Origin: Acidimicrobiia bacterium
GTDB taxonomy: Bacteria; Actinomycetota; Acidimicrobiia; Acidimicrobiales; JANYDT01
Length of the DNA: 27,479 nt
Direction: 5' to 3'
NCBI GenBank assembly: GCA_031431255.1
Contig: JANPDB010000823.1
Span: 1-27,479 of the forward strand
Positions within the stretch are counted from its first letter, which is position 1, and the number at the start of each line of letters is the position of its first letter. Below the pieces are notes generated by a model. That model made no database searches and was not told the origin of the DNA. It saw only the letters and a program-made list of their open reading frames with translations. This document shows positions 2,697 to 25,233 of the stretch, piece after piece. The translations under genes were made by a program, and so were the position numbers.

Positions 2697-2801
2697 CTGC
2701 AGCGCTGCTTCGGTTGCGCGTCCATCCGCTTGTTGTGGACCATGATTCGCACTCGGAAGAACACGCACGATCCGCCGTACTCGGCAGGGGGGAAGCAAGC
2801 C

Positions 2802-5374: not shown

Positions 5375-5672
5375 CGGACGACAGCGCCGCCTCGGGAGTT
5401 GGCCGCGTGGGGAATTCGTGCGGGGGCGGGCCAGCACGTCGCGGCGCGTAGACGGCGAGTGCGACTATGAAACAGGAGAGGGCAGCTTGCTTTGCTGCCG
5501 ACTAGGTGGATGAGCGCGATGCCGCTCAACAACGACGGTCACGGCTGGGCGGACCTTTCGTACATCGTCGCTGGTGTCGCCGGACGCTCTGCCGTACCGT
5601 TGAGGCTGCCTGAGTGTTGGCCGGGCGTTGCATAGCTTCGCTGTCACAAGAACCCGCCGCGAAGGAGGACCA

Positions 5673-6404: not shown

Positions 6405-7315
6405 TCGCTACTGTCACCTCGCAACAGGTGTTGTCACTGCGTCGCCAGCGTGTGTTCCTCGCGATGCTCACCACGCTGCTGACGATGACCGTCTTCGCCG
6501 GGGTGCTCGGCTGGTCCAGCCATCGGACGATTGTCCGGGTCTACGACGAAGCGGTCAAGCTTTTGGCCTCTACCGGCAAACCGGCACCTCCCAACCCGTT
6601 CCTGCTCAAACCGACCCTGTCGATGCTGTCCAACATGGTCGTCTATATCCCTCTGATCGGCGCGCTTCTCGCACTCCTCATCGGCCACCTCAGCATTGTC
6701 GACGACGAAGTCGACGGCACCGGAAGGCTTGTGTTCTCCCGTCAGATCACCCGCACCAGCTACGCCCTCGGCAAGATGGTCGGGACGGCAATCGTGCTCG
6801 CCGCTATCGCCGCAGCCAGCCTTCTCGTCAGCGCCGCCTCACTCTTCGTCGTCAACCACACCATCGCCGTCGGCGACTTCGGACGCCTCGGGCTCTTCTA
6901 CGCGCTCTCGTGGTTGTACCTGATGGTCTTCGGTCTGATCGGTATGGTTACGGTGCTCAGCTCCCGCCGCCGCTCCATCGCCCTTCTCGCGGCCATGGGG
7001 GCGTGGCTCGTGTTGACGTTCGTGATTCCCCAGTTCACCTCCGGGCTGCGCCCTACCCAATCGCTCAATCCGATAACCGACCCATCGAGCAGCTCCCAAA
7101 CCTTCTTCAAGGTCACCGCGAAGCTGCGGCCCTACTCCGTGGTCGAGCAATACAAGGAAGCAAGCGGGCGCGTCCTGCAAACCGCGACGGCCGAATCGCT
7201 CGACCGCACCATCTTGCGAATTCTGGCGATCGTCGGGCTTGTGCTCGTCCTTGCGCTAGTGAACGTTCGACTCGTGCAACGCCACGATTTCTCGCGGAGC
7301 GCCGTTGATGAATGA
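6401..7315 (+). CDS. ABC-2 type (NosY-like) permease 1 (304 aa)
   Basis: About 6 hydrophobic segments; GHLSIVDDEVDGTGRLVFSRQITR resembles the ABC-2 coupling region. GTG overlaps the ATPase stop (GTGA). Confidence 0.85.
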   Translation: MIATVTSQQVLSLRRQRVFLAMLTTLLTMTVFAGVLGWSSHRTIVRVYDEAVKLLASTGKPAPPNPFLLKPTLSMLSNMVVYIPLIGALLALLIGHLSIVDDEVDGTGRLVFSRQITRTSYALGKMVGTAIVLAAIAAASLLVSAASLFVVNHTIAVGDFGRLGLFYALSWLYLMVFGLIGMVTVLSSRRRSIALLAAMGAWLVLTFVIPQFTSGLRPTQSLNPITDPSSSSQTFFKVTAKLRPYSVVEQYKEASGRVLQTATAESLDRTILRILAIVGLVLVLALVNVRLVQRHDFSRSAVDE

Positions 7316-8294
7316 CTCGACCAACCGCATCATCGCGCTCGCCCACCATGACTATCGCGCGGCTGTGCGAAGCAGGATCTTGTTCGTGCTGCTCGGCATC
7401 TGCGTCACTGTCACTGCGGTGTCCGTGTACATCGCATCGATCGATTACGCGGGCAATCTCGCCGACTATCAGGCGTACCGTGCTGCCGCCCAAGCCAGCG
7501 GACTTGCCCGTATCGCACCCTCGCCTTTCGCCGCGGCGTCGTTGCTGCGCGGCGCAATGGAGTACCTCGAAATCATTGGCGCCGTCGTCGCGATCACTCT
7601 CGGCTACCTCAGCGTCTCTCGAGAACGCAACAACCGGACGTTGCCCCTCATCCGCTCCCGGCCGGTCACCTCCCGCGAACTCGCTTTGGGCAGTCTCCTC
7701 GGCGCAGTTGGCGTGATCGCAACGCTGGTGGCCGTGACGGCCGCCGTCGGGGTGCTCTGCGTCGGCGTCATCGGCCACGACTGGGTCAATGCCAGACAAG
7801 CGCTGAAACTGTTTCTCGGGTACCTCGCCGCGATTGTCTATATGGGTTCGTTCTACTGCCTCGGCGCGATCGCCACTGCGAAGTCGCGAGTCGCGACCAA
7901 CGGATTGATGATCGCCCTTGGAATCTGGCTCATCGTCGTGCTCATCCTCCCTCAGATCGGTGACACGATGGATGCCGACAACCAGATCCCAGGTGGCCTC
8001 TTCAAAGCGCTTGGCCTAGGCCACGGAGGCGAGGTACAGATCCTCACCCACTTCACTGCCTACGAGCGCACTCGGACGTGGATCGAAGAAGCGTCGCTCG
8101 CCAAACACTTCGAACGCTTCTCGTTCGCCATGACCGACGTAAAGGAGCGCTACCGCCCGTTCAGCATCCCGCGACTGCTCGGCCAGACCCGCAACGACAT
8201 CGGCTGGCTCGTGGCGTACTCTGCCGGTCTGTACGCGGGTTTGCTCCGCACTCTTCGCTCGCAACCGACGATCCCCAGCGAAGGAACCCCATGA
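7308..8294 (+). CDS. ABC-2 type (NosY-like) permease 2 (328 aa)
   Basis: GYLSVSRERNNRTLPLIRSRPVT motif typical of ABC2_membrane_2 permeases; about 6 TM segments; 8-nt overlap (ATGAATGA) with permease 1. Confidence 0.87.
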   Translation: MNDSTNRIIALAHHDYRAAVRSRILFVLLGICVTVTAVSVYIASIDYAGNLADYQAYRAAAQASGLARIAPSPFAAASLLRGAMEYLEIIGAVVAITLGYLSVSRERNNRTLPLIRSRPVTSRELALGSLLGAVGVIATLVAVTAAVGVLCVGVIGHDWVNARQALKLFLGYLAAIVYMGSFYCLGAIATAKSRVATNGLMIALGIWLIVVLILPQIGDTMDADNQIPGGLFKALGLGHGGEVQILTHFTAYERTRTWIEEASLAKHFERFSFAMTDVKERYRPFSIPRLLGQTRNDIGWLVAYSAGLYAGLLRTLRSQPTIPSEGTP

Positions 8295-9041: not shown

Positions 9042-10403
9042 TCAGCCCAGGGGCAGTCGAACGACGAAACGTGCGCCTTCGGTACTCGGTTCGATTCGGA
9101 CCGTCCCGGAGTGCGAGTCAACGATTTCGCGCACGATCGACAATCCCAGTCCTGACCCGCCAGAATGCCGGCTTCTGGAATCGTCGAGCCGTGCGAAGCG
9201 GTCAAAGACGCGTTCACGGTCGGCGGGTTCGATGCCTGGGCCGTCATCTTGGACTGCAAACATCGCGACTCCTTCCTCTTTCCGAAGTTCCACCAGCACC
9301 CGAGATGTTGCATAGCGCGACGCGTTCTCGAGGAGGTTGCGGGCGACACGGGCGAGTTGATCAGCGTCTCCCCTCACCTCGACAGGAGCGACGGCGTTCA
9401 GGTCGATCCGCACATTCGACCGTGGCTGCAGTCTCCGGGCTTCGGATCGCACGATGTCGTCGAGGTCTACGGCGGCGTACTGCGTCAGCTTCACACCGCT
9501 ATCGGATTTCGCGAGGAACAACAGATCAGAGATCAACCTCGTCATCCGACGGTTGTCGTCCACCAAAGAGACTGCGACTCCTTCCCACTGGACAGATGTT
9601 GGGTGCGCGATCGCCACCTCCAAATCGGCCAGGCTGGCCGCCAATGGGCTCTGAAGCTCGTGCGACGCATCTGCGACGAACCGGCGTTGACGTTCCGATG
9701 AATCCTGGAGACGGCCGAGCATGAGGTTCATACTTCGTGCTAGCCGTCCGATCTCGTCGTCGACAGGTGGTTCGGGGATCCGACGGGAAAGGTCTCCGCC
9801 TCCGATCTCTGACACTTTTCGTTGTAGAACGTCGACCGGGCGCAGCGCCGCCCCGACGAAGAACCAACTCACTGCCGCCACGATCAAGAGAAGGAGCGGG
9901 AACGAGATCTCTAAGATCTTCTTGACCGATGAGACGTTCTCGTTCACCCCGTCCAAGCTGAGAGCTACATATACCCCAATCGGCCCGGTTGGCGTCTGGG
10001 CACCGAAGGCCACAAGGTGAAACGGGTCGTCCTTCTGATCCCCGGTAATGGGCAGATCCGTCCGTGATTCCGACAGGAAATCGCCCAGGACCGGCCGTAG
10101 TGTTGAAATCCGCGAGCCGGGGATGACTTGCGCGCTGGCGGCGACGCTTTCACCTTTGCCGTTCACTACTTGGATCACGGCTCCCTTTTCGCCCGAGTCC
10201 GGAAGAGCCAGGGGCAGCTCGGTCTTCTGCGTAAGCAGTGCGACTTCCTCCGCCCGTGTTCTTGCCGAGTTGGAGACGTTGTTCTGCAGGGCCCGATGCA
10301 TGAGCGCCAAGAACAGAAGAGCAGTCACCAAGAGCGCCACTGCGACGACAATCGTGGCTGCCGATGCCATCTTCATTCGGATCGTCGCTGGCTTCATCCT
10401 CAC
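9042..10403 (-). CDS. Membrane sensor histidine kinase (2 TM, HAMP, HisKA, HATPase_c; 453 aa)
   Basis: ALRPV/DDEIGRLA HAMP motifs, H-box ADASHELQSPL, N-box NLLENA, G1 VQDDGPGI, F-box VFDRF, G2 GSGLGLSIV. Confidence 0.95.
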   Translation of the reverse strand: MRMKPATIRMKMASAATIVVAVALLVTALLFLALMHRALQNNVSNSARTRAEEVALLTQKTELPLALPDSGEKGAVIQVVNGKGESVAASAQVIPGSRISTLRPVLGDFLSESRTDLPITGDQKDDPFHLVAFGAQTPTGPIGVYVALSLDGVNENVSSVKKILEISFPLLLLIVAAVSWFFVGAALRPVDVLQRKVSEIGGGDLSRRIPEPPVDDEIGRLARSMNLMLGRLQDSSERQRRFVADASHELQSPLAASLADLEVAIAHPTSVQWEGVAVSLVDDNRRMTRLISDLLFLAKSDSGVKLTQYAAVDLDDIVRSEARRLQPRSNVRIDLNAVAPVEVRGDADQLARVARNLLENASRYATSRVLVELRKEEGVAMFAVQDDGPGIEPADRERVFDRFARLDDSRSRHSGGSGLGLSIVREIVDSHSGTVRIEPSTEGARFVVRLPLG

Positions 10404-10409
10404 TGGTGG

Positions 10410-11087
10410 TCACCCGCCATCGGGGTCGAGGCGGTAGCCAACGAGACGCAGTGTCTGGATGCTCGAGCGCGAAAACGGAATGTCAATCTTCTTGCGAAGG
10501 TACCCAACGTAGACCTCGACGATGTTCAGGTCCATGTCGTACGAGTCGGCCCAAACATGCTCCAGAATTTCCGTCTTCGAAAGCACATCGCCGGGGTGCA
10601 TCATGAAGAACTCCAGTAGAGCAAACTGGCGCGGCGTGAGTTCTACCTCAACATCGCCCCTCCAACAGCGGTGCCGGGCCGGATCGAGGCGAAGATCTGC
10701 GACACTCAGGATTGTTGGGCGCACTCGGCTGGTGCGCCGGATCAATGCGCGGAGATGAGCAACAAGAACGACATACGAGAACGGTTTCGTGAGAAAGTCA
10801 TCAGCCCCGGTATCCAGTGCTTCGGCGTGGTCGTGTTCACCGTGCTTCGCCGTAAGCATCAATATTGGCGTCCAGATTCCCGCTTCACGCAGGTCAGCAC
10901 ACACCTGGTAGCCATTGCGTTTCGGCAACATGATGTCGAGGATGATTGCGTCGTACTCGTTCTCCTCCGCGAGTCGCAGACCTTCTTCGCCATCGGAGGC
11001 GGTGTCGACCACGAAGCCCTCACGCACCAGGCCGCGTTTCATCGCAGCGGCAAGGCGCTCCTCGTCATCGACCAGCAAGAGCCGCAT
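10410..11087 (-). CDS. OmpR/PhoB-family response regulator (225 aa)
   Basis: MRLLLVDDE, LDIMLP phospho-acceptor, LTKPF, and winged-helix C-terminus (NIVEVYVGYLRKKID, TLRLVGY). It lies 6 nt upstream of the kinase. Confidence 0.96.
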   Translation of the reverse strand: MRLLLVDDEERLAAAMKRGLVREGFVVDTASDGEEGLRLAEENEYDAIILDIMLPKRNGYQVCADLREAGIWTPILMLTAKHGEHDHAEALDTGADDFLTKPFSYVVLVAHLRALIRRTSRVRPTILSVADLRLDPARHRCWRGDVEVELTPRQFALLEFFMMHPGDVLSKTEILEHVWADSYDMDLNIVEVYVGYLRKKIDIPFSRSSIQTLRLVGYRLDPDGG

Positions 11088-11191: not shown

Positions 11192-12160
11192 TCACGCTCG
11201 TTGCACCGACGGATCGGCCGTCGAATACACGAGCGCCCGCTTCTCGAGCTCAAGTGCCCCCTTCGACGCCAAATCAAGCTTCTCAGGCGAGAGTTTCTCG
11301 GTGCGCACCATCAGGAGAGTTTCCTTCGACTCATCGGTCCCGTCCCATCCGACGCGAACCACCCCGACGCCCGGCGCGTAATACTTCAGCTGTATCGCGC
11401 TTGTCTCCTCTTCGTTGTATTCCTCCGTAAGGAGCACCCCTTTGTAGGTGCCGGTCGGAACGGTCGTCTCCTCGGTCATTGACCGCACGCGCGCCCGGTC
11501 GTTCCAGAAATACGGTGCTGGAGCGAAGCCTTCCGACCAGTCCGGCGCATTGGTCTTGGGATCGGCCTTCATCATGATTCCCGCCTTGGCATCTGCTGGA
11601 TGGCCGACGAACCACGTGCGACCCGCAGTGTATTCGCCCCCGTCCCACAACTCGCTGTACTGGCCCAAATGCCAGACATTACCCATCTTGTCCTGGGCAA
11701 AGAAGGTCAGTTCATCCTCTTCCAGGTCCCCCTCAGTGAAATCGCTTTCCCAGATGACGACGGTATTGACCCCATTGATCACCTTCGTCAGGTTCGTGAC
11801 GGTGAACGTGACCCGGTGTCCAAGAGTCTTTCCGTCCTCAAACGTCGAGCCATCATACTCATGTCGAGTGCCCGGGACCAACGGAAAGTATTTGTTGTCA
11901 ATATTGATCGAATTCTCGTCGAAGTTCGCGACCTGAAAGTCCTCTCGAGTGAACTTGCTCGGTACGACAACGGGCCGACTGCTAGCCGGGTTCTTGACCG
12001 CATCATCGGTCGTCTCTGCTGCCACGGTAGCGGCATCTACCGTCGTGTCGGAAGACGAGGACGAGCATCCAGTCCCGAAGAAAGCCAGAGCGACAACACC
12101 ACTCAGCAAAGTCAGAGCCTTCCCTCGATGACGAGCGGGCCGAGATCTGCGAACATTCAT
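11192..12160 (-). CDS. Acidic lipoprotein of unknown function (322 aa)
   Basis: ATG at 12160 with SD AGGAGT; Arg-rich N-region, hydrophobic core, GTG-C32 lipobox. Mature part has YFPLVPG, FFAQDKMGNVW, AGIMM.A.P, TVPTG and KYYAPGVG, which I recall from a widespread uncharacterised beta-rich secreted family. The ORF-track extension to 12754 overlaps the RND gene and is discarded. Confidence 0.85.
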   Translation of the reverse strand: MNVRRSRPARHRGKALTLLSGVVALAFFGTGCSSSSSDTTVDAATVAAETTDDAVKNPASSRPVVVPSKFTREDFQVANFDENSINIDNKYFPLVPGTRHEYDGSTFEDGKTLGHRVTFTVTNLTKVINGVNTVVIWESDFTEGDLEEDELTFFAQDKMGNVWHLGQYSELWDGGEYTAGRTWFVGHPADAKAGIMMKADPKTNAPDWSEGFAPAPYFWNDRARVRSMTEETTVPTGTYKGVLLTEEYNEEETSAIQLKYYAPGVGVVRVGWDGTDESKETLLMVRTEKLSPEKLDLASKGALELEKRALVYSTADPSVQRA

Positions 12161-12264: not shown

Positions 12265-15200
12265 TCACGACGGGACCACGGCGATACGGGCCAGTCTCGC
12301 TCGCTCGGCCTTGGACTTGCCAAGGTGTAGGTACATCGGTGGAACGACGAAGAGATTCAAAAGCGTCGAGGTGAAGAGGCCACCGAGAATGACCGATGCC
12401 ATCGGAAACTCGATTTCTTGACCGGAGATGTTGCCTCGCACCAGCAGCGGCACCAGCGCGAGCCCGGTTGCGAGCATCGTCATGAGGATCGGTGCCAGGC
12501 GCTCGGTGGCACCTTTCAGGACGAGATCGGGACCAAACGGAACCCGCTCCTCCTTCTCCAGATGCTGGAAGTGCGTGATTTCCATGATGCCGTTTCTCGC
12601 GGTCAAACCGACGACGGTGAAGAAGCCTACGAACGACCCGATCGAGAGGACGCCGCCGCTCAGGTAGGCGCCCAGTACCCCACCGACGAGAGAAATGGGA
12701 AGCGTGATGAGGTGTAGGGCGACGTCGCGCCAATTTCGGAACACGGCGAGGCATAGCGCGACGATTCCTGCGAATGCGAGTGCAGCAAAGGCGAGAAGCC
12801 GCGTCTGGGCCGCTTGCCGTTCCCGGTACTCACCAAGAACCTGTGCAGTGTGTTCGAGCGGCAGTTTGATTTGGGCAACCTTCGCTTCCAGGTCGCGCGC
12901 GACCGCGCCGAGATCACGTCCATCGACTTCGGCGGAAATGTCAAGACGACGGAACCCTCCTTCGTGGCTGATGGCGTTGGGCGTGGGACGAATGCTCACC
13001 TTGGCGACGTCACCGAGTCGGACCTTCGCTCCGTTCGGGCCATTGACGAGTATTTCGCTGACGTCGTGGATGCTGTTGCGAGCTTCGGGCACGCTCCATA
13101 CCTCGACGTCGTAGGTCTTCCCATCACGGAATACGTCGCCCACCTCTTCGCTCGCCATGATGGTGGCGGCAGCACGCCTCACGTCTCCTGGCTTGACCCC
13201 CGCCTGCTTCGCCTTCAGGAGATCAACATCCACCTCAATCTGCGGCACCAGCAACTGCAACTCGACGTGCTCGTTCTTGACGCCCTCGATCTCGCCGAAG
13301 GCATCTTTGACTTCTTCGGCCTTCGTTCGCAGAACATCGAGATCCGGCCCGATCAGGCGCACGACGAGAGGGTCGCTCTGTCCGGTGATGGTCTCGCTTA
13401 TGCGTTCGGCGAGATAGGTCTCGACGTTGGTGAACATACCCGGATAGCTCGCCACCACTTCTTCGATCTTGGCGAGGGTCTTGTCGTAGTCGACCTTCGG
13501 GTCGATGCTGATCCAGTTCTCGCCGAAGTCAACGCCGGCGATTTCCTCGCCAAGGAACGCCTGCCCGATGTGAGAGCCAAAGTTACGGACTCCCGGAATG
13601 GCCCGAAGTTCGTTGCTGCCTTTGATCACGATCCGTCGTTCCTCGGTGATCGAGGTGCCAGGTTTCGAGATCCAGTGCATCAAGAAGTCCTTCTCCTTGA
13701 AGGTCGGGAACAACGATTGGCCAAGGGTAGGAACCAGGGCGATGCCGCCGATGGCCACCGCTGTCACGGCCGCGTAGATCGGGATCGGGCGCGAAAGGAG
13801 TGGGGTGAGCAGACGTCGGTAGCCGCGACGCAAGAAGACGGCTAGCGGAGATTCGTGATGGTCCCACATCGGAGACGCGGTGCCGCTTCGGGAATAGAGG
13901 ATCATGCTCAACGCCGGGGTGCTGATGAGCGCAACCAGCAGCGACACGGTGACGGCCAGCGCGTACGTGATTGCCAGAGGACGGAAGAACGACCCCGTCA
14001 GGCTCTTCAGGAAGAAGATTGGAACGAGCGACATGATCTCGATGAATGACGCGTAGACCACCGCGCCACGTACCTCGACCGAAGCGGCCAGAATGACCGC
14101 AGCCGTCGATCTAGGGCTGCCGTTGGCATTGTTCTCACGTAGGCGACGCACGATATTCTCGACGTCAACGATTGCGTCATCGACGATGGCGCCGAGCGCA
14201 ATGACCAAGCCCGCCAATACCATCGTGTTGATCGTGGCGCCCCGGGCGTAGAGCACCAGCCCGGCGGCGGTCAACGACAACGGCATTGTGATGACGCTTA
14301 TCAACGCCGAGCGCCAATCGTAGAGAAACAATCCGAGCACGATCAGAACGAGCAGCGCGCCGAGAATCAATGACGAAGTGAGGTGATTGATCGCTTCATC
14401 GACGAAACTCGCCGGACGGAAAATCGTCGTGTCAATGTCGATTCCCGGAAGTCCGGGAGCCATCTCAGCCAGCGCCTTCTCGGCCCCTTCCGTCACCTCC
14501 AGAGTGTTGCCCCAGGGGAACTTCTCAACGACAAGCATCAACCCGGTTCCGCCGTTGATAACTGCGTCTCCGGCGAGAGGCGGCGAACCAGTGACGACTT
14601 TGGCGACGTCGCCGATCCGCAGGATCTTGTCGCCGCGTTGGACGAGCGCGACTTGCGCGAGATCCTCCGGCGTAACGATTGACAACTTGTGGCGCACACC
14701 CAGCCGCTGATTCGGCGTATCGATGAACCCACCTGTGCCGATGAAACCGCCACCGGCATACTTGAGAATTCCCGCATCGAGAGCTTCAGCGGTGGCTTCC
14801 ATCACCTGGTCGAGTGACACGTTCTCGCTGGTCAGCTTGTCCGGTTCCACCTGCACCTGGTACGCCTTGATTCGTTCACCCCAGATGGCGACGTTTGCCA
14901 CTCCGGGTACTCGGAGCAACCTGGCCCGGATCTTCCAATAGGCCGTCATCGACATGTCTTCAAGGGAAATAGTTTTCGAAGACAGTCCGATCTTCATCAC
15001 CCGACTGGTTGCCGAGAGCGGCTGCATCATCACTGGGGGAGCGGCCCAGGTCGGTAGAATGTTTTGTATCGTTGCGAGCTTCTCCTGAACGAGTTGTCGG
15101 GCGTTGAGCTGATCGGTTCCTAGCTTGAAGGTCAGCTCCACGTATGACAACTGGGAAGCACTCTTGGACCTCATGATTTGAAGACCCGGAACGCCGCTGA

Positions 15201-15417
15201 GCGCCTGCTCCATCGGGATCGTTACGAGTGCTTCAACCTCGGAAGCGGCAAGCCCCAGACAGGCGGTTTGGATCTGTACGCGTGGCGGTGCAAATTCCGG
15301 AAAGACATCGACCGGCATCTTCTGCAGTGCGTTGAAACCAAACAGCATCATTCCAGCGGAGAAGGCAACTACAAGGTATCGAAATCGCAGACTATTCTTG
15401 ATTATCCATCGCAACAT
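12265..15417 (-). CDS. Heavy-metal efflux RND transporter, CzcA/CusA family, intact proton-relay motifs (1050 aa; RND-A)
   Basis: PVDVFPEFAPPRVQIQT N-terminal motif of HME/NrsA-like RNDs; TM4 GAIVDDAIVDVENI (D413, D414, D418, E420); TM10 TARNGIM; TM11 ERLAPILMT; TM12 GGLFTSTLLNLFVVP. Confidence 0.93.
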   Translation of the reverse strand: MLRWIIKNSLRFRYLVVAFSAGMMLFGFNALQKMPVDVFPEFAPPRVQIQTACLGLAASEVEALVTIPMEQALSGVPGLQIMRSKSASQLSYVELTFKLGTDQLNARQLVQEKLATIQNILPTWAAPPVMMQPLSATSRVMKIGLSSKTISLEDMSMTAYWKIRARLLRVPGVANVAIWGERIKAYQVQVEPDKLTSENVSLDQVMEATAEALDAGILKYAGGGFIGTGGFIDTPNQRLGVRHKLSIVTPEDLAQVALVQRGDKILRIGDVAKVVTGSPPLAGDAVINGGTGLMLVVEKFPWGNTLEVTEGAEKALAEMAPGLPGIDIDTTIFRPASFVDEAINHLTSSLILGALLVLIVLGLFLYDWRSALISVITMPLSLTAAGLVLYARGATINTMVLAGLVIALGAIVDDAIVDVENIVRRLRENNANGSPRSTAAVILAASVEVRGAVVYASFIEIMSLVPIFFLKSLTGSFFRPLAITYALAVTVSLLVALISTPALSMILYSRSGTASPMWDHHESPLAVFLRRGYRRLLTPLLSRPIPIYAAVTAVAIGGIALVPTLGQSLFPTFKEKDFLMHWISKPGTSITEERRIVIKGSNELRAIPGVRNFGSHIGQAFLGEEIAGVDFGENWISIDPKVDYDKTLAKIEEVVASYPGMFTNVETYLAERISETITGQSDPLVVRLIGPDLDVLRTKAEEVKDAFGEIEGVKNEHVELQLLVPQIEVDVDLLKAKQAGVKPGDVRRAAATIMASEEVGDVFRDGKTYDVEVWSVPEARNSIHDVSEILVNGPNGAKVRLGDVAKVSIRPTPNAISHEGGFRRLDISAEVDGRDLGAVARDLEAKVAQIKLPLEHTAQVLGEYRERQAAQTRLLAFAALAFAGIVALCLAVFRNWRDVALHLITLPISLVGGVLGAYLSGGVLSIGSFVGFFTVVGLTARNGIMEITHFQHLEKEERVPFGPDLVLKGATERLAPILMTMLATGLALVPLLVRGNISGQEIEFPMASVILGGLFTSTLLNLFVVPPMYLHLGKSKAERARLARIAVVPS

Positions 15418-15435: not shown

Positions 15436-15900
15436 CTATTCGTCGCCGACGCCGATTTCGGCGCCGTAGAGCTGAGTTGCGCCGAGTGTCACGACCTTCG
15501 TACCTTCATCCGGACCTTCAGTGAGCGTTGCTACGTCGCCGACGATCTTCTCGACCGTGATCGACTTTCGCTCGAAGGAAAGACCTTTGACGTTCACGTA
15601 CGCCCATGTCTTGCCATCGGGGTCATAGAGCACAGCACCGTACGGAATCTCCAGGCCGGAGGGCCCCATCCTCGCTTCCTCCGTCTTCAGATCAATCCGG
15701 TCCGCGGCCTCCTTGGTCAGGGTCACACGCTGGAGTTGCGAACCTTGAATGTCTTCGACCTCGGCTGCACCATTTGTCGCTTCATCCTCACCCGCAGCGC
15801 TGCGGCAGCCCGATAGCGAGAGCAACCCGACTATCAGGAGACGTTGGAATAGCTTGTTTCGACGGATGAACTTCCCCGTTGTTTTCCGCGTCGTTTCCAT
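15436..15900 (-). CDS. Small lipoprotein resembling only the membrane-proximal domain of a CzcB/CusB-type adaptor (154 aa)
   Basis: ATG at 15900 with SD AAGGA; LSG-C32 lipobox. LQRVTLTKEAADRIDLKT resembles the adaptor N-terminal segment and is joined directly to IPYGAVLYDPDGKTWAYV..SFERKSITV..GDVATLTEGPDEGTKVVTLGATQL, which resembles the adaptor C-terminal segment. Confidence 0.75.
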   Translation of the reverse strand: METTRKTTGKFIRRNKLFQRLLIVGLLSLSGCRSAAGEDEATNGAAEVEDIQGSQLQRVTLTKEAADRIDLKTEEARMGPSGLEIPYGAVLYDPDGKTWAYVNVKGLSFERKSITVEKIVGDVATLTEGPDEGTKVVTLGATQLYGAEIGVGDE

Positions 15901-16025: not shown

Positions 16026-19000
16026 TCACGAACGGACCAGATCGGGTCGAGTCGTTTCGGACGCGTTGATCAACTCGTCGATGTCCCAGGCAGGCAGGAT
16101 CTCCTTCGGTCCGAAATGTACGTACAACGGGGGTAGGACGAACAGCTGCGTCATCACGGTCGTAACCAGACCACCAAGGATTGCGACGACCATCGGGAAG
16201 AGCAGTTCTTGGCCGGCAATGTTGTTGAAGATAAGAACCGCAGCAAACGCGAGGGCGGTCAGAATACTTGCGTTCACTATCGGACCGACTCGCGATCGAG
16301 CCCCGAGAAGCATCAACTCTTCGTCGAGGGGGCGGCCGTCGTTGCGGAGAGCGAGGTATCCCTCGACGGTTCGCAGAGTGAACCGCGTGGCCAAGGCAAA
16401 CACCGCGGCCAACGCCGAGACGGTAGCGATGGACATGGGCTCTCCGAAGACGCGTGCAGCCACGGGAGCGCCGGTGACCGACACGATGATTGCGAGAAGC
16501 GTTATGGCGCCGAGACGCCAGCTTCGGAATGCGGCCTGCAGTACGAGGAAAACGCCGAGAATTGCCGCGATGGCAAAGGCCATCACCCGTCGTTGCGACG
16601 ATTGCTCGTCGTTGTAGTCCGATAGCACGGTCGTATGAAACTCCGGGGGCATGGCGATCCGTGCGAGGGCTTTTCGAAGATCCGCGGTGACCTCTCCCAC
16701 GTTTCGACTCTTCACATTCGCCGTCACGTCGATGTAGCGAGAGATGTCGTCATGCTCGATAATCGGCGGAGTTGATCTCACCGTGACGTTGGCGACGTCG
16801 CCGAGCCTGATTACTTTGCCGGCCGGAGTGTTGATCAACAGGTCCTGGACGCTCGAGACGCTCGTCCGGATCTCAGGGCGTCCCCAGACGGTGACTTCGA
16901 AGATCTTCTGATCCTGGAAGAGGTTTCCAACCCGAAGGCCCGAGAGGAGGGTTTCCGATGCCCGTCGGACGTCGCCGGGTTTGATGGCGAGTGCTTGAGC
17001 CTTCAGCAGGTCCACGTCAACTTGAATCGTGGGTTCGGCCAGTTGGGACGATATGCGTGCCTGGGAAACGCCCTTTATCCCGGACAGTGAACCCTTGATC
17101 TCGTCAGCCTTCTTGCGAAGCAGGCCGAAGTCCTGTCCATAGAGCCGAACGGAGACCTCGTCCCTACTGCGTCCGAGCGACTTACGAAGCCGTTCCGCAG
17201 AGTATGTGGTCACACGATGGCTCAACCCGGGGTAGCCGCCGACGATTCGACGGATTGCTCCGACCGTCTTCGAGTAGTTGGAAGCTTTCACGCTGATGAA
17301 CATTTCTGCGGCGTCACTCCCGACCGGTCGGTCTCCGCTCACTGCCTGACCAATCTGCGAACCGACCATTCGAACGCCTGGGACCGCTCGCAGCTCTGTG
17401 GTGGCCCGGGCGATGATCCGCGTCATCTCAGGCAGCGACGTGCCGTAGGGAGCCTGCCACCTGATCATCAGGTTGGTGTCTTTGAACTTGGGGAGCAGTA
17501 CCTTGTCCATCGATGGCACGACGGCTATTCCAGCGACAAGAAGAGCCGCTCCCGTTGCGAGTGCCGGAATCGCAGACTTCCCGAAAACCGCAAGCGCTTT
17601 CGTGTAGGTGGGCCCCAACGAGCGGGTCACGAGCGAAGTGTCGTGCTCGCTCCTGTCATTCAGTAGCTTGCGAAGTGCCGGCGTCAAAGTCAGAGCAACG
17701 ACAATCGAAGCAGCCATGGTGACCAAACACGAGATCGCAACAGGCGGAAAGAACTCGTCGCCTGAGACTCCGTTCAGAAAGTAAATGGGCAGCATCGCGA
17801 CCGCGAATATCACGGTCGACCACACCGCCATTTTCGCGGCGCCGTGTGCACCGTTCAGCAGGGCGCGGGACGTGGTCCCAACGGCACTTTCGCTCGGCGA
17901 CGAAGGCGTCGGCGACTCAGCGTCGTCGCTCAATGATTGCTCGATCACCGCACCGACAGCAACCGCCAACCCGGCAATCACGACAACGTTGAAAGCGACG
18001 TCGAGCAGATGCAAGATGGTCGCGGCCGCGCCGAAGGAGAACGCCACCGATACCAGCGCGATCAGCGCCTTCCTCCATCGCAGCAGAAGCAGAACCAAAC
18101 CAGCTGCGACCAGCACTACGCCGACCACAACCGATCGCAGGAGATTTGAATTGGATCGGTTGAGGTAGTCCGTTGGACGGAAGACGGTTGAGTCCATTTT
18201 GAGCCCGACGAGTCCGGGGCGCAACGTCTTCAACACTTCTTCTACGCTGCGCGCGACCTTCGCTGTGTCAGCATTTGGAAGCTTCTCGACCACGATCAGA
18301 AATTGCCCCTCGTCCCCGACGACGGCATCACCAATCAGTGGTTGATGATCCTCGACCACAGTCGCCACATCACCAAGCGTCAACGGAACCCCGACGGTGT
18401 CGTCAATGGCGATCGTGGCCAGATCCTTCGGCTCGATGACCGGAAGATTGTGTTGAATGCCCAGACGCTGGTTGGCCGTGTCGATGAACCCGCCGGTCCC
18501 CGGGGTTGAAGCTTCGAGAAACGTCAGAGGCGATACCCAAAGAGCATTTCCCGTCGAGCTCACCACCTGCTCGATCGAGACCCCCTTCTCACGTAGCTTC
18601 GCGGGGTCAACCAGGACCTGCAACTGACGTTCGCGCTGACCCCAGATCGCCACGTTTGATACTCCGGACACGGCGAGCAATCGGGGTCGGATTGTGAACC
18701 GTGCGAGAACACCGATCTGTATCGGCGTAAGTGTCTTCGACGACAGAGCAATCATCGCGGTACGACTTGTTGACGCCTGAGGCTGGAGCATTTGCGGAGG
18801 GCGCGACACATTCGGCAGGCCTGCCGCTTGGCTGATCCTCTCCTGCACTACCTGGCGTGCTCGGTACAGAGGCGTTCCCTCGTCGAAGATCATTTCGATG
18901 TACGACAGGCCAGGCACGGATTTGGAGTGGATGGAGTCGAGCCATGGGACGCCGTCGAGGAGATCCTGCTCTATGGGAACGGTGACAAGTTGTTCGACCT

Positions 19001-19175
19001 CTTCGGCGGACAGGCCGAGCGCATCGGTCTGAACGACCACGCGGGGAGGATCGAACTCCGGCAACGTCTCTGTCCGGGCGTTCTGCAGCTGAATGACTCC
19101 AAAGACCATCAGCAAAACCGCAAACGCGATTACTGCCCGATTGGCCTTCAGACTCCACGCAATGATCCGTCTCAT
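16026..19175 (-). CDS. CzcA/CusA-family RND paralog with degenerate transport motifs (1049 aa; RND-B)
   Basis: Collinear with RND-A ([43 protein letters not shown]), but TM4 reads [13 protein letters not shown]10 ATRFTL and TM11 SRVGPIVNA. Full-length uninterrupted frame; SD-like GGAAGG upstream. Confidence 0.9.
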
Positions 19176-19833: not shown

Positions 19834-19890
19834 ATGGCAGGTAAACCAGAAACGCAGTGAAAATAGAGTCGTGTGAAACGAGGAATGAAC

Positions 19891-20898
19891 ATGAAACTTG
19901 TCGGTAGCCGCGTACGCACTCGTTACGGAGCCGCGAGTGTGCCTGTGATGTCAGTGCTTCTCGTAGCTGTCGCGTCGCTGACGGCCTGTAGCGGTAAGTC
20001 GGACAACAGCGGAACTCAGTCGGCTGCGGTGGATTCGCCCCTCGGCCTTGACGAGGCCGCGTCCGCGCTGATGCAGACGCGCGTCGAGGAATTGGTCAAG
20101 TCGTGCATGAAGCGTGCCGGGTTCGAGTACGTACCGGTTGACCCGAATGCCACGAAAGCGGCGATCACCGGTACGAGTGGGCTCACCGATGACGAATTCC
20201 GACGCCAGTTCGGCTACGGGATCAGCACTGTTTTCGAAAAGATCGTCGAGATCAGCCAGTCGTCGAAATCCGTGGATCCCAACGTGACGTACCGAAGTGG
20301 TCTAGATCCCGCCGGACAGCAAGCGTTCGACGTTGCGTTGACCGGCGGGAAGGCCGACGTCTCCGTCTCGGGCGCCGTGGAAGCGGCGAAGACCGGTGAC
20401 CTCGGTGGTCTAGGGGGATGTGTCGAAGAAGCCACAACAGCGGTGTTCGGAGGGGCCAACGTCGTGTCGGCATTGGCGAAGATCGAGGAACTCGATTCCC
20501 GGGCTGAGGCCGACGAACGCCTGGTCAAAGCCCGGGCTGATTGGTCGAATTGCATGCGGAAGCAGGGATTTGAGTATTCCGAGCCGAACGCTGTCGACGT
20601 GGGAATCACCGAGAAGCTTGCTGCATTGGTCGGCCCGGCTGCGGCGAAAGCACTGGGAGAGGAGGGGACATTCAGCCCACTGGTCTTCGGAACCAACGCC
20701 CTTCCCGCCTACGACAAGGCTGCCCTGGTGCAGTTGCAGGCAGAGGAGATAGCCACAGCCCAAGCCGACCTTCAGTGCGAGGAGAAGTACGTCGTGGACG
20801 TGGAGGACAAGGTGAAGGCCGAGTACGTGAAGAAGTTCGCACAGGAGAACGCCGTGCTCCTGTCCAAAGCGCAGTCCGAATTGGAGAAACGTAAGTGA
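19891..20898 (+). CDS. Lipoprotein with repeated CMxxxGFEY motif, four Cys in the mature part (335 aa)
   Basis: SD GAGGA at 19880-19884, ATG 19891, LTA-C33 lipobox. CMKRAGFEY (20104-20130) and CMRKQGFEY (20550-20576). Resembles the lipoproteins I recall leading actinobacterial adaptor-ABC operons. Confidence 0.85.
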   Translation: MKLVGSRVRTRYGAASVPVMSVLLVAVASLTACSGKSDNSGTQSAAVDSPLGLDEAASALMQTRVEELVKSCMKRAGFEYVPVDPNATKAAITGTSGLTDDEFRRQFGYGISTVFEKIVEISQSSKSVDPNVTYRSGLDPAGQQAFDVALTGGKADVSVSGAVEAAKTGDLGGLGGCVEEATTAVFGGANVVSALAKIEELDSRAEADERLVKARADWSNCMRKQGFEYSEPNAVDVGITEKLAALVGPAAAKALGEEGTFSPLVFGTNALPAYDKAALVQLQAEEIATAQADLQCEEKYVVDVEDKVKAEYVKKFAQENAVLLSKAQSELEKRK

Positions 20899-23222
20899 AG
20901 CGCTCGGTCGTCGCGGGTGGGATGGCGGTCGTTGTCGGTGTGTCCACGGGAGCCGGGTGGCTCGCAGCATCCCGCGTGAAATCGCCCGCCAAGTTGGCGG
21001 CCGAGGCTGCCCCTCCGGAAGCGTCGTTGATCACGTATCCGGTTGAAAAGCGCGTCCTGAGTTCGGATCTCATCATTCGAGGCACGATGCGTTATAGCGA
21101 TCCGATCGTGGTGGTGCTCGCGCCGTCGGCGCTTCGTCCCCCGCCCGTGCTGGTGAGTCAGGCACCGGTGAAGGGAGCGACGCTGAATGAGGGCGACGTC
21201 GCCATGGTCGTTTCGGGGCGACCCGTGTTTGTCGTGAAGGGAGCTACCCCAGGGTTTCGTGATCTCGGACCCGGTGCGGTCGGCGCCGACGTGCGGCAAC
21301 TGGAGGACTTTCTTCAGCGTCAGGGTTTTGACCCCGGAACCGTGGACGATCACTACGACGGAGCAACTTCCGCCGCAGTGGCGAGGTGGTACAGCAAGGC
21401 CGGCTACCAGGCGTTGGGACCAAACGACCAACAGCGAGCGACACTCCGAGTCGCCGAGTCCGCACTCAGCGTCGCTACCGATCGCCTGCTTCAGGCCAAA
21501 CAGACAGAACTCCTCAACCGCTCGGGAGCGAAGCCTGTCGAAATCATCGACGCGAAGGCGACAGCAGACACATCGAAAGCAACGGCGGCGGCGGCACGAA
21601 TCGCGGCACAGCGAGACGCAGACCGGAGCCAGGCGGAGCTTGCCCTCAAAGAGGCGGATCTCCTCAACAAAGGTGCTGATCTCGCGACCAAACGGGCCGC
21701 CGTCGAAGTGGCGGGAATCGTGCTCGACGACGCTCGTCGGCGCGATGGGCTCGTCGCATCGGGTGTGAACGTGGCGACCGGTGTCACCGTGACACCTCAG
21801 CAACTCGGGTTGTTGCAGGATGGCGTCAACGAGGCCGTCATTGCGGTGGGAGCCGCCGAAGCCGACTTGTCTGCTTCAGAAGCGGTTGCGAACAGCGTAC
21901 GAGTCGCCGGTGAAGCATCGGTGGCGGAGGCGCGCACCAAGCTGAACGGGGCATCCACCTACGTTCTCGATGGACTCACACAGCAAGAACAACTCAACGT
22001 GATTGCCGCAGCCAGAAATGCCCAGGCGGCGCTCGCGCTCGCCGAGGCGGCGGCGGCAAAGGACAACGCCGTCGCGGCGGCGGACGTAGCGACCAAGAGG
22101 GCAGTTCTCGCTACCGCGAAATCGAGGGCAACTCAGGCTCAACAACGGATAGAAAACGCGAACGCCGGGGTGGACCCGGCGACCGGTCTGCCGCTTTCAA
22201 CTGCAGGTGATCGCGCTAACAGTCAATTCGCACTGAAGCAGGCCGAACTCATCCTTCGTCAGGCGGAGATTGCCCTTTCCCCAGCAGAGGCTCTTCTGGC
22301 TGCGGCACAAAATGACGTCGAAACGCTACGACGCGTGAACACACTCACGGCGACGGCGAATCAACAAGCCATTGCAGAGTCCGACATGCGTGTCGAGTCG
22401 GCGCAAGCTCGACTACAGGCCCTGGGTCGTCCCGGTGCCGGTTCTGCGAATCTCAGCGAAGCGGTCAGAGTCGCAACGGCCGAGGTGGCCCGCTTGCAAT
22501 CCGACCTGGAAAGGTACGCGGGCGCTGTCGGGGTTCAGGTACCGGCGAACGAACTCGTCTTCTTTCCCAGCCTTCCACTGCGCATCGACGATACGAAGAT
22601 CAAGCGTGGTGATCCGGCGACGGCCGAAGTCATGACCGTGAGCGGAACCCGACTGGCTGTTGACGCAGCGCTGTTGACAACCGAAGCTACGCTCACGCGA
22701 ATTGGTGCAGCCGCCACCATCGAAGCGCCGGAGTATGCCTTCAGCAGCAAGGGTGCGATCACCTTTCTCGCCGACAAACCAGGCCTGCGTGGAACGGATG
22801 GACAGCACATCGCCATCGAGGTAACTCCCGAAGACAGCTCGACGCAATTGGTCGGCGCATCCGTGCGGATCACGATACCGACCAAGACGACCAATGGGGA
22901 GGCATTGATCGTTCCGGTGAGCGCGTTGTCGGTTCGTGCCACAGGGAGTACTCAACTTCAGATTCAAGATTCGCCCGGAGTCGTCCGGACGGTCGTTGTG
23001 ACCGCCGGGCTGTCAGCCCAAGGCTTCGTGGAGATCGTTCCTGTGAGCGGTTCGGTAAAGGCGGGCGATCGGGTCGTGATCGGCGCTGACGGGCCGACGA
23101 CTACTGACCCACTCGCAAAGGATGCGGCGCCGCTTGCCACTGCACCATTGGGCTCGGTCGAGCCCAACGCGGCAACGTCCGTCGAGGTCGGAGCTACTTC
23201 GACAGTTCCAACGAGCCCATAA
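20895..23222 (+). CDS. Peptidoglycan-binding membrane-fusion/adaptor protein with very long Ala-rich coiled coil (775 aa)
   Basis: N-terminal TM anchor; VEKRVLSSDLIIRG adaptor start; PG_binding_1-like segment FRDLGPGAVGADVRQLEDFLQRQGF..DHYDGAT..AV; helical region about aa 178-540; C-terminal LIVPVSAL..V.AGLSAQGFVEI..GDRVVIG. GTGA-coupled to the lipoprotein gene. Confidence 0.88.
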   Translation: MKRSVVAGGMAVVVGVSTGAGWLAASRVKSPAKLAAEAAPPEASLITYPVEKRVLSSDLIIRGTMRYSDPIVVVLAPSALRPPPVLVSQAPVKGATLNEGDVAMVVSGRPVFVVKGATPGFRDLGPGAVGADVRQLEDFLQRQGFDPGTVDDHYDGATSAAVARWYSKAGYQALGPNDQQRATLRVAESALSVATDRLLQAKQTELLNRSGAKPVEIIDAKATADTSKATAAAARIAAQRDADRSQAELALKEADLLNKGADLATKRAAVEVAGIVLDDARRRDGLVASGVNVATGVTVTPQQLGLLQDGVNEAVIAVGAAEADLSASEAVANSVRVAGEASVAEARTKLNGASTYVLDGLTQQEQLNVIAAARNAQAALALAEAAAAKDNAVAAADVATKRAVLATAKSRATQAQQRIENANAGVDPATGLPLSTAGDRANSQFALKQAELILRQAEIALSPAEALLAAAQNDVETLRRVNTLTATANQQAIAESDMRVESAQARLQALGRPGAGSANLSEAVRVATAEVARLQSDLERYAGAVGVQVPANELVFFPSLPLRIDDTKIKRGDPATAEVMTVSGTRLAVDAALLTTEATLTRIGAAATIEAPEYAFSSKGAITFLADKPGLRGTDGQHIAIEVTPEDSSTQLVGASVRITIPTKTTNGEALIVPVSALSVRATGSTQLQIQDSPGVVRTVVVTAGLSAQGFVEIVPVSGSVKAGDRVVIGADGPTTTDPLAKDAAPLATAPLGSVEPNAATSVEVGATSTVPTSP
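21675..22187 (+). repeat. Intragenic protein-level duplication in the adaptor coiled coil (135-aa period)
   Basis: aa 261-296 (21675-21782) ADLATKRAAV...SGVNVATG and aa 396-431 (22080-22187) ADVATKRAVL...AGVDPATG align without gaps at 15/36 identities. Confidence 0.7.
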
Positions 23223-23230
23223 GAACAGCC

Positions 23231-23977
23231 ATGTCTCGCGAACAGCAGTCCAACGAGACCGACAAAGAGGGAGGCGACCTACCGCAGGGGCCACGCGTCC
23301 TTCTTGAACTCATTCACGTGAGCAAGGTCTTTCCGACCACACCGCCGGTAAACGCACTCTCTGATGTGAACGTCCGGATTCTGCCTGGTGAGTATGTCGC
23401 GATCGAAGGCCAGTCGGGCTCCGGAAAGTCAACACTGCTGAATGTGCTTGGATGCCTCGACCGACACACCAGCGGTACCTACCTCTTCGATGGGATAGAC
23501 ACGTCGGAGCTCACTGACTCTGAGCGTGCCGAGCTACGGGGCAATCGGATCGGGTTCGTTTTCCAGGCTTTTCATCTTCTTGCCCATCGCAGCGTTCTCG
23601 AGAACGTGATGCTTGGTGAGTTGTACCTCGCCAACCCAAGGTCGGAGCGCAAGAAGGAAGCGCTGGTTTGTCTTGACCAGGTTGGGATGAACCACCGGAT
23701 TTCGTTTCTGCCGACGCGACTGTCGGGCGGCGAAAGGCAACGTGTGGCCATCGCCCGTGCTCTCATGGGTGACCCCGGGGTCCTTCTCTGCGACGAGCCG
23801 ACCGGCAATCTCGATACCAAGAACACCGAGATGGTTCTTGATCTTCTCGATGCTCTTGTGGCTCGGGGCATCACGGTGTTGGTCATCACTCATGAGAGTT
23901 CCGTTGCCAAGCGCGCTCAGAGACGACTTCGTATCGTGGACGGCTTCGTGTCGGAGCTCGTCGGTACCGTCTCGTGA
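23231..23977 (+). CDS. ABC ATP-binding protein, LolD/MacB family (248 aa)
   Basis: [44 protein letters not shown] and ITHE; all catalytic motifs intact. Confidence 0.95.
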
Positions 23978-25233
23978 GACTCGCTCGCAGGCCGCGGCAG
24001 ACGAGCGGGAGTGCGCGGCGCGCACACAAACAGACGAAGCTGAAGCTCGTTGACTTGATCATCGAAGCAAGCTCGGGCGTCTTGTCGCGTCCCGGTCGTG
24101 CTGTGCTGACAATTCTCGGAACGGTCCTCGGAATCGGCGCTCTCGTCGCAACGCTTGGCATCTCAAAAACGGCAGGCAATCAGATCGTTGGTCGCTTCGA
24201 CGCTCTGGCGGCAACGGAGATCATTGCCACGCCACGGGCCGTTGGACGGCTCACCGTGAACGCCATTCCATGGAACGCGCAAGATCAGCTCGAGCGACTG
24301 AACGGCGTGGTCGCGGCAGGAACGCTGGCCGACATCACGGTCAAAGGGACGTTGATCCGCGCGGTGCCGGTGAACGATCCGCTCGGGCAGAGCCAGTTTC
24401 AGATGCCTATCAAAGCGGCGTCGCCCGGACTGTTTCGCGCCACCCGGGCACGACTGGGATCGGGACGTTTCTTTGATCAGGGACATTCGGATCGCACGGA
24501 GCGTGTGGTTGTCATCGGGCGTTCGGCGGCCCAAAAACTCAATCTTGCGAGAGTCGATCAGCTACCGGCGATCTTCGTCGGCGACCAGCTGTACACGGTC
24601 ATAGGGATCCTCGACTCCGTTGCCCGGCAACCCGACCTGATTTCCTCGATCATCATTCCGGAAGGAACCGCTCGCAAAGAGTTCCGACTCAGCGGCCCGT
24701 CCCTGGTCGAGGTCGAAACGCAAATCGGCGCGACGAGTCTCATCGCCGAGCAGATCCCGCTCGCCCTATCGCTGAATGATCCCTTGAAGATCAAGGTCGC
24801 GGCGCCCCCCGAACCGAAGCTTGTCAAAGACGGAATCCAGAGCGATCTCAACTCGCTCTTTCTCGTGCTGGGCGCGGTGTCGTTGCTCGTCGGCGCGATC
24901 GGCATCGCCAACGTCACGCTCGTTTCGGTTCTCGAGCGGACCGGGGAGATCGGTCTGCGGCGTGCGTTAGGCGCCGGGCGTCGCCACATTGCGTCGCAGT
25001 TTCTCGCCGAGAGTACCGTCTTGGGTTTGATCGGCGGTGTTCTTGGGGCATCGTTTGGGCTGCTCGTCGTTGTCGGCATCGCGGTGACCCGTCAGTGGAC
25101 CGCCGTTATCGACCCGAAGATCCCACTTCTGGCCCCGCTCCTTGGAGCCGTGGTCGGGCTCGCGGCCGGACTGTACCCGGCTCTGCGAGCCGCACGACTC
25201 GAGCCCGTCGAGGCGCTTCGCTCGGGAACCTGA
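23974..25233 (+). CDS. MacB/FtsX-type ABC permease (up to 419 aa)
   Basis: GRAVLTILGTVLGI first TM, large extracytoplasmic domain (GRFFDQ, VVVIG, IGIL), GAIGIANVTLVSVLERTGEIGLRRALGA, and YPALRAARLEPVEALR C-terminus. The true start may be slightly downstream. Confidence 0.93.
   Translation: MRLARRPRQTSGSARRAHKQTKLKLVDLIIEASSGVLSRPGRAVLTILGTVLGIGALVATLGISKTAGNQIVGRFDALAATEIIATPRAVGRLTVNAIPWNAQDQLERLNGVVAAGTLADITVKGTLIRAVPVNDPLGQSQFQMPIKAASPGLFRATRARLGSGRFFDQGHSDRTERVVVIGRSAAQKLNLARVDQLPAIFVGDQLYTVIGILDSVARQPDLISSIIIPEGTARKEFRLSGPSLVEVETQIGATSLIAEQIPLALSLNDPLKIKVAAPPEPKLVKDGIQSDLNSLFLVLGAVSLLVGAIGIANVTLVSVLERTGEIGLRRALGAGRRHIASQFLAESTVLGLIGGVLGASFGLLVVVGIAVTRQWTAVIDPKIPLLAPLLGAVVGLAAGLYPALRAARLEPVEALRSGT

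Follow-up and report, generated by a model that had tools for sequence, protein, structure and literature searches.

A degenerate RND permease maintained beside an intact paralogue: a candidate non-pumping partner subunit in a widespread two-permease module

The window analysed here, a stretch of 27,479 nucleotides comprising positions 1 to 27,479 of the Acidimicrobiia bacterium contig JANPDB010000823.1, encodes two tandem permease paralogues of the RND superfamily. The upstream paralogue, RND-B (16026-19175, minus strand, 1049 residues), carries a degenerate proton relay and a degenerate porter site, whereas the downstream paralogue, RND-A (12265-15417, minus strand, 1050 residues), has an intact relay and an acidic porter site. 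RND-B is kept by selection, and as a class the upstream paralogue has a dispensable relay and a dispensable acidic site, neither of which the downstream paralogue ever loses. The reading favoured here, with a probability of roughly 60%, is that RND-B is a scaffold, non-energy-coupling subunit of a hetero-oligomeric RND-A/RND-B exporter in which the pumping falls to RND-A. Conserved gene order, joint retention and the conservation pattern suggest that the two proteins co-assemble, and RND-B would have been retained since it assembles with RND-A, giving structure rather than pumping; the preliminary description did not spell out this likely reason for its retention. The term pseudo-transporter, introduced for RND-B in a preliminary description of the window, remains the best inference, given that the downstream partner keeps both relay and acidic site in 35 of 35 pairs while upstream copies lose them repeatedly.

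The RND-B frame is uninterrupted and aligns with the Pfam family ACR_tran (PF00873) from end to end (470 bits, residues 6-1021 on model positions 3-1020 of 1021), which confirms the full-length frame without stops reported earlier. RND-A likewise matches ACR_tran end to end, with 676 bits, and by these matches both proteins have the complete RND architecture of 12 helices and two periplasmic loops. The paralogues are 39% identical over 1034 residues in a BLASTP alignment. In transmembrane helix 4 (TM4), D413-D414-A-I-V-D-V-E420 of RND-A becomes E412-Q413-S-L-S-D-D-A in RND-B, so that E412-Q413 takes the place of the Asp pair (residues 408-420, translated from 17916-17954, minus strand) and the VEN block of the RND-A sequence VDDAIVDVEN is absent. 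In TM10 (16368-16391, minus strand, translated) ARNGIM is replaced by TRFTLR, in which R931 is kept, the Asn has become F932 and an extra arginine, R935, appears; in TM11 (16266-16301, minus strand, translated) ERLAPILMT is replaced by SRVGPIVNA, with R962 kept and A969 at the position of AcrB T978. The preliminary description had given all of these substitutions, together with those of the porter domain discussed below, and every one is reproduced by BLASTP alignment and translation. Alignment to E. coli AcrB places DDERNRT of RND-A at the positions of AcrB D407, D408, E414, K940, N941, R971 and T978 (relay residues D413, D414, E420, N421, R941, N942, R973 and T980), while RND-B has E, Q, A (or a gap, depending on the alignment), R, F, R and A. 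RND-B therefore lacks the set that marks an intact relay (equivalents of AcrB D407, D408, K940, N941, R971 and T978), for which RND-A reads D, D, R, N, R and T. The equivalents of AcrB D408, E414/N415, N941 and T978 are gone from RND-B, but a carboxylate, E412, is retained at the first Asp position, as are the TM10 arginine R931, which aligns with AcrB K940, and the TM11 arginine R962; the earlier statement that the proton relay was lost holds for the former and is overstated with regard to the latter.

The EQ and RF states of TM4 and TM10 are common to the RND-B orthologues in three other genomes and to two metagenome protein clusters (93% and 78% identity), and E412 and Q413 are invariant throughout this EQ clade, with R931 nearly so. 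The substitutions thus recur across the whole near clade, a point that the preliminary description had left to be checked. A chance event or sequencing slip is ruled out by the presence of the same state in orthologues at 78-96% identity, and a loss of the Asp pair confined to one strain is rejected on the same distribution. The one departure at R931 is found in cluster P0005, the metagenome orthologue at 93% identity, where a Pro replaces the TM10 arginine (ATPFTLRT); this is either a sign that the last relay arginine is also dispensable or a sequencing error. The extra arginine R935 (16377-16379), one helical turn past R931, is shared by the six members of the EQ clade and corresponds to Ala in the nearest DG, DQ and DE relatives. 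It might pair with E412.

The porter domain has changed in parallel, in that E625, E633, E671 and E675 of RND-A correspond to R616, E624, E661 and K665 of RND-B. The PC1 stretch of RND-B that bears these residues and D615 (17181-17333, minus strand) was translated and aligned to ZneA. A phmmer alignment to the ZneA structure 4k0e places the four RND-A residues on ZneA D602, E610, D654 and D658, and the proximal site of ZneA is given as positions 136, 602, 610, 654 and 658 in a published residue table (PMC7060636 supplement), so that the correspondence with ZneA given in the preliminary description is borne out. The position of the fifth ligand, ZneA E136, is an arginine in both paralogues (R139 in RND-A, R138 in RND-B). 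By sequence comparison over the five positions, RND-A therefore reads R, E, E, E, E (four of five acidic), invariant across 36 relatives, and RND-B reads R, R, E, E, K (two of five acidic); two of the four acidic positions have indeed become basic (R616 and K665). These basic residues are not a general trait of upstream copies: R616 and K/R665 characterise relatives from about 65% identity upwards only, and elsewhere in the upstream clade the positions are mostly Gln, or Gln, Ala or Glu. A replacement of the cation by Arg or Lys, put forward as a possibility in the preliminary description, would accordingly not be general. As far as the acidic cluster indicates, the cargo is probably a divalent metal cation.

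Selection on the two paralogues was compared in the window and three related genomes carrying orthologues of both genes, using the ratio of nonsynonymous to synonymous substitution rates (dN/dS) by the Nei-Gojobori method at dS of 0.15 to 1.1. RND-B is 96, 84 and 83% identical to its three orthologues, RND-A 98.5, 97 and 95%. The dN/dS is 0.11-0.14 for RND-B and 0.026-0.037 for RND-A, so that constraint on RND-B is about fourfold weaker than on RND-A, yet purifying selection is clear. Most of the relaxation falls on the membrane domain (0.185, against 0.029 in RND-A), with lower values in the periplasmic domain (0.070 against 0.023) and in its N-terminal loop (0.050 against 0.018). An upstream lineage that still has DD and RN shows the same asymmetry, with a dN/dS of 0.11-0.13 in the membrane domain, 0.06 in the periplasmic domain and 0.03 in its partner, which indicates that relaxation of the membrane domain predates the loss of the Asp pair and explains it. 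The frames are intact in all full-length RND-B orthologues examined. Loss of relay and site residues and the faster evolution of RND-B, three to four times that of RND-A, could be taken to mean that RND-B is a gene in early decay, with a frame intact by luck. This explanation has next to no probability and is excluded by the dN/dS of 0.11-0.14 at dS up to about 0.9, with 0.05 in the N-terminal periplasmic loop, together with upstream frames of about 1050 residues that have stayed unbroken in at least 35 lineages from several phyla. The view of RND-B as maintained rather than decaying, put forward before any dN/dS had been calculated, is hence supported, the ratio being far from 1.

The degeneration extends beyond RND-B of the window and is a trait of the upstream paralogue across the family. 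RND-B, a small gene and RND-A stand in tandem in all eight related genomes with a long enough contig, and seven of seven upstream-type proteins checked for context, spread over the clade, lie in the same module, which consists of an upstream RND, a stub adaptor of about 150 residues and a downstream RND and occurs at more than 35 loci in Actinomycetota, Chloroflexota and some other phyla. Across seven loci the small gene encodes 142-243 residues (142-157 in five of them), and four of the seven continue with a response regulator gene, in most cases accompanied by a kinase gene. An upstream-type RND without its downstream partner was never seen where the contig allowed the check; the upstream and downstream genes are co-inherited.

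A scan of one genome per species, using an alignment of downstream proteins, gave 24 clean pairs in named genomes. Carriers include Arthrobacter, Pseudarthrobacter, Cryobacterium, Streptomyces, Rubrobacter, Gaiellales and several Chloroflexota, together with a small number of two-membrane bacteria (Bradyrhizobium, Ignavibacteriaceae and Lewinellaceae); Bradyrhizobium sp. sGM-13, Ignavibacteriaceae and Lewinellaceae have the pair in place of the single-copy form usual in such phyla, which suggests horizontal transfer out of Actinomycetota or Chloroflexota. All 24 downstream copies and all single-copy relatives have DDERNRT, R139, Asp or Glu at 624, E625, E633, E671 and E675, and seven further downstream copies have DDERNRT at every relay position covered. 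The upstream copies of the 24 pairs are divided into 13 with DD, seven with GD, two with HD and two with DE, and their acidic cluster is degenerate. Some upstream copies have lost all seven relay positions (SHSYAST, AEHQQAA) and still have intact frames beside an intact partner. Annotation routinely gives genes of this family the name of CusA or CzcA efflux pumps, which is probably wrong for the upstream copy.

Two observations concern unusual copies of the module. On the Acidimicrobiia contig JBFWRK010000016.1 (1-14800) two complete modules lie head to tail, with a small gene of 149 residues; one upstream copy has DD and the other HD, and both downstream copies have DDERNRT. On several contigs from metagenomes or metagenome-assembled genomes, the reading frame of one RND gene of the module, or of both, is broken into two or three pieces, as at locus L026 (11716-14839), where the downstream copy is divided into 763 and 128 residues. 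Such split frames are either real pseudogenes or assembly frameshifts.

Relatives retrieved by searches with RND-B form a graded series, and the origin of the pair was followed in two trees. In the first, with 221 sequences and rooted on E. coli AcrB, MdtB and MdtC, the RND-A proteins form a tight and uniform clade whose sister is a large clade with recurrent loss of the Asp pair. Parsimony requires 34 changes between DD and non-DD states, all but two of which (E. coli CusA and one outgroup protein) fall in the upstream clade, and about 62 of the 189 cluster representatives of that clade lack one or both Asp residues. The path to RND-B of the window leads from DD (P0013, P0014) through DE (P0012) and DG or DQ (P0009 to P0011) to EQ. 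The second tree contains 35 upstream copies, 35 downstream copies and 42 proteins scored as single-copy. The upstream copies are monophyletic with a support of 1.0, and the downstream copies form their sister clade with a support of 0.97. Six proteins scored as single fall within the downstream clade; for five of these the locus is truncated or fragmented, and a second RND gene lies about 2 kb downstream of the sixth (L047). The outgroup consists of the remaining 36 single-copy proteins, all from two-membrane phyla (Planctomycetota, Verrucomicrobiota, Acidobacteriota, Pseudomonadota and others). Since the upstream and downstream copies are sister clades with single-copy relatives outside them, the pair stems from a single old duplication. 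From the common ancestor, the upstream copies have accumulated 1.28 and the downstream copies 0.77 substitutions per site. In Sphingomonas, the only single-copy locus whose flanks were examined, a gene for a 391-residue adaptor precedes the pump and an outer-membrane factor gene follows it.

What the upstream copies still conserve is seen from the mean column conservation by region across the 35 pairs. They are about equal to the downstream copies, or above them, in PN1 (0.73 upstream, 0.76 downstream), PN2 (0.75, 0.79), DN with its protruding loop (0.73, 0.64) and DC (0.67, 0.69), but far lower in TM4 (0.51, 0.88), TM10 (0.50, 0.82), TM11-12 (0.56, 0.84) and PC1 (0.56, 0.76). The invariant columns of upstream copies are almost entirely in the periplasmic loops, whereas those of downstream copies include every relay and site residue. 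Residues that are at least 90% conserved among upstream copies and differ from the downstream consensus cluster in residues 123-225, with G209, S215, P216, S223 and P225 in the loop, and in DC, with Q756, F759 and G765. In AcrB, the protruding loop inserts into the neighbouring protomer. The strong constraint on the periplasmic domain, with a dN/dS of 0.05 in the N-terminal loop and with PN1 and PN2 as conserved as in RND-A, would also be expected if RND-B recognised the cargo and transported it via this domain, RND-A being only the motor; MdtB2C offers a precedent, since a split has been proposed in which MdtC binds the drug and MdtB supplies the proton energy. Such a role is unlikely, because the only recognisable site, the ZneA-like acidic cluster, is invariant in RND-A and degenerate in RND-B, and PC1, which bears it, is among the least conserved periplasmic parts of RND-B. 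Moreover, lacking a functional relay itself, RND-B would need RND-A to drive its cycle, a coupling that is not known from any RND pump.

According to the trees and the gene context, an adaptor-RND-outer-membrane-factor pump of two-membrane bacteria, with a ZneA-like acidic site, was duplicated once, and the adaptor of the new module shrank to a stub of about 150 residues. In a scaffold role for RND-B, the downstream copy, RND-A, would have kept proton coupling and cargo binding, and the upstream copy, RND-B, mainly the parts that build the oligomer, namely PN1, PN2, DN with the protruding loop and DC. The TM4/TM10/TM11 relay and the PC1 site of RND-B would then have been free to drift, in the clade of the window from DD over DE and DG or DQ to EQ. 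RND-B would most likely be a fixed protomer, a stator or spacer, beside one or two pumping RND-A protomers, and such a non-cycling protomer would be tolerable if protomers of metal-type RND pumps cycle independently. A complex prediction with fragments covering the two periplasmic loops of RND-A and the N-terminal loop of RND-B, given separate alignments, scored 0.15, under the mark of 0.32, a score that speaks in neither direction on binding. In a more specific and rather unlikely version, charge pairs of R616 and K665 with E624 and E661 in the former metal site, and of R931 and R935 with E412 in the former relay, would lock RND-B in one conformation, and RND-B would then be a stator on which the geometry of the RND-A protomers depends, and perhaps also the direction in which they cycle.

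Several points weigh against a purely structural role. RND-B keeps E412, R931 and R962, and metal-type RND pumps such as CusA, CzcA and ZneA function with only one TM4 Asp, located where RND-B has E412, so that RND-B may retain some residual or altered ion coupling. The full Asp pair is kept in about half to two thirds of upstream copies elsewhere, and in lineages with this pair the upstream subunit may still pump. Finally, covalently linked AcrB trimers reportedly fail when one protomer is inactivated, which means that a dead protomer is not tolerated by all RND pumps. In a rival explanation, RND-B is an autonomous transporter with a remodelled coupling site of E412 with R931, R935 and R962, using one carboxylate as in CusA and ZneA, another ion, or facilitated diffusion. 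The invariance of E412 and Q413, the near invariance of R931 and the fixation of the new R935 in the EQ clade are in its favour, as is the sufficiency of one TM4 Asp in metal-type pumps. It is distinctly improbable all the same, given that other upstream copies without any relay position keep intact frames beside an intact partner, that the membrane domain is the most relaxed part of RND-B, that RND-B lacks the VEN block as well as the Asn of TM10 and the Thr of TM11, and that it was never seen without RND-A where the contig allowed the check.

In the window, RND-B, a gene for a lipoprotein of 154 residues (15436-15900, minus strand) and RND-A follow each other on one strand, separated by about 125 and 18 bp when 15900 is taken as the start of the small gene. 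Residues 24-79 of the small lipoprotein align to residues 73-128 of the 391-residue Sphingomonas adaptor (4315-5490 of its locus), and residues 82-150 to residues 321-389 (42% identity), while about 190 middle residues of that adaptor are missing, so that the protein is a periplasmic adaptor cut down to its two ends, which make up the membrane-proximal part. Pfam returned no family for either the 154-residue protein or the Sphingomonas adaptor, and the assignment as an adaptor is drawn from NCBIfam and the pairwise comparison. The fourth gene of the module encodes a lipoprotein of 322 residues without a named family (11192-12160, minus strand), for which Pfam gave only a weak DUF3108-like match below the cut-off; at some related loci, too, the downstream RND is followed by a gene of about this size. 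The host belongs to the Acidimicrobiia (Actinomycetota) by the source names of close homologues. RND-A and RND-B are the only ACR_tran genes in its genome bin, which is 78% complete, and no outer-membrane factor gene was found in this bin or in the loci whose genes were listed.

Directly downstream of the module lie genes for a response regulator (10410-11087, minus strand) and, directly after it, a histidine kinase (9042-10403, minus strand). Two-component genes follow the module here and in several relatives, an arrangement that would suit a sensor or regulator which is no longer part of a pump and reports envelope or metal status to the adjacent system. For RND-B this is very improbable, since the acidic site that could sense a metal is degenerate, two-component genes are missing beside some pairs, and the docking subdomains and protruding loop are conserved in a way that suggests oligomer assembly. 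On the other side of the module, a divergent set of four genes on the plus strand (19873-25233) encodes an ABC ATPase, a MacB-type permease and two further proteins, one of 341 residues and one of 775 residues that carries a peptidoglycan-binding domain. Its synteny with the RND module is preserved in a relative with only 68% identity in RND-B (positions 2193-7594 there); the MacB-type set and the RND module travel together. A heavy-metal P-type ATPase with an HMA domain (381-2696, plus strand), about 10 kb from the RND operon, fits a metal-handling neighbourhood and is not evidence for the cargo.

The module represents a second, independently evolved family of two-permease RND systems, in which evolution has done the mutagenesis: one subunit always keeps relay and acidic site, and the other has lost them many separate times and to varying degrees while still under selection. 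Among Actinomycetota and Chloroflexota of soil the family is widespread, and its presence in cultured Arthrobacter, Pseudarthrobacter, Cryobacterium, Streptomyces and Bradyrhizobium makes assembly, stoichiometry and the role of a dead subunit directly testable. Should RND-B be a stator, the module would be a natural experiment in which an RND exporter runs although one protomer is permanently dead, pumps that lack an outer-membrane partner would have abandoned three-fold functional rotation, and the upstream subunits would provide a graded series from fully active to fully dead for dissecting the coupling between protomers. This bears on the debated interdependence of protomers, with strict functional rotation in AcrB on one side and independent protomers in CusA on the other. 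Literature searches for a relay-less RND paralogue or for paired RND pumps of Gram-positive bacteria found no description of the module.

Among solved structures, ZneA of the HME family (4k0e) is the best match of RND-A (E 9e-102), and the NCBIfam model TIGR00914 (CusA/CzcA) is the top model for both paralogues, with 533 bits for RND-A and 312 bits for RND-B, each below the cut-off of 701 bits. Neither protein has the TM4 motif of HME CzcA and ZneA (D-F-G-x3-D-G-A-x3-[VM]-E-N). RND-A reads A-L-G-x3-D-D-A-x3-V-E-N, as in HME5 and HAE, and RND-B reads A-V-G-x3-E-Q-S, without E-N. CusA is a homotrimer with three active protomers and relies on methionine clusters instead of carboxylates. Heterodimeric ABC exporters with one degenerate ATP site, such as TM287/288 and TAP1/2, retain, after a duplication, a half that has lost its catalytic residues, because the assembly needs it; they differ in superfamily and energy source, and their degenerate half still carries part of the translocation path. 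Each protomer of the CusA trimer binds and exports Cu(I) independently of the others (PMC8092243), which offers a mechanistic explanation of how an oligomer of metal-type RND subunits could tolerate a non-cycling protomer.

The closest organisational parallels are the heterotrimeric pumps MdtB2C of E. coli, MuxBC of P. aeruginosa and SmeJK of S. maltophilia, which are likewise built from tandem RND paralogues encoded in one operon. Subunit roles have been proposed to differ in MdtB2C-type pumps, as they are here for RND-A and RND-B; loss of MdtB2C function is more complete with relay mutations in MdtB than with the equivalent mutations in MdtC, and the mechanism and the need for asymmetry are described as unclear (PMC4338810). 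A survey of Gram-negative proteomes, from which Actinobacteria and Chloroflexi were excluded, found tandem permease genes only in the MdtBC clade (PMC10872679). MdtBC arose by a separate duplication: RND-A and RND-B are mutually closest paralogues in a clade that excludes E. coli MdtB, MdtC and AcrB, and their family lies on the CusA side of the tree when the AcrB/MdtB/MdtC group is taken as root. The two paralogues are also further apart (39% identity, against about 50% for MdtB and MdtC), and, unlike in MdtBC, the adaptor is a 154-residue stub between the RND genes and no outer-membrane factor was seen in the 78% complete genome. Both MdtB and MdtC of E. coli keep a full relay (DDEKNRT), whereas RND-B has lost it in nature, which goes beyond the MdtBC precedent. 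By analogy, a putative complex of RND-A and RND-B would resemble the MdtB2C arrangement, independently evolved and taken further.

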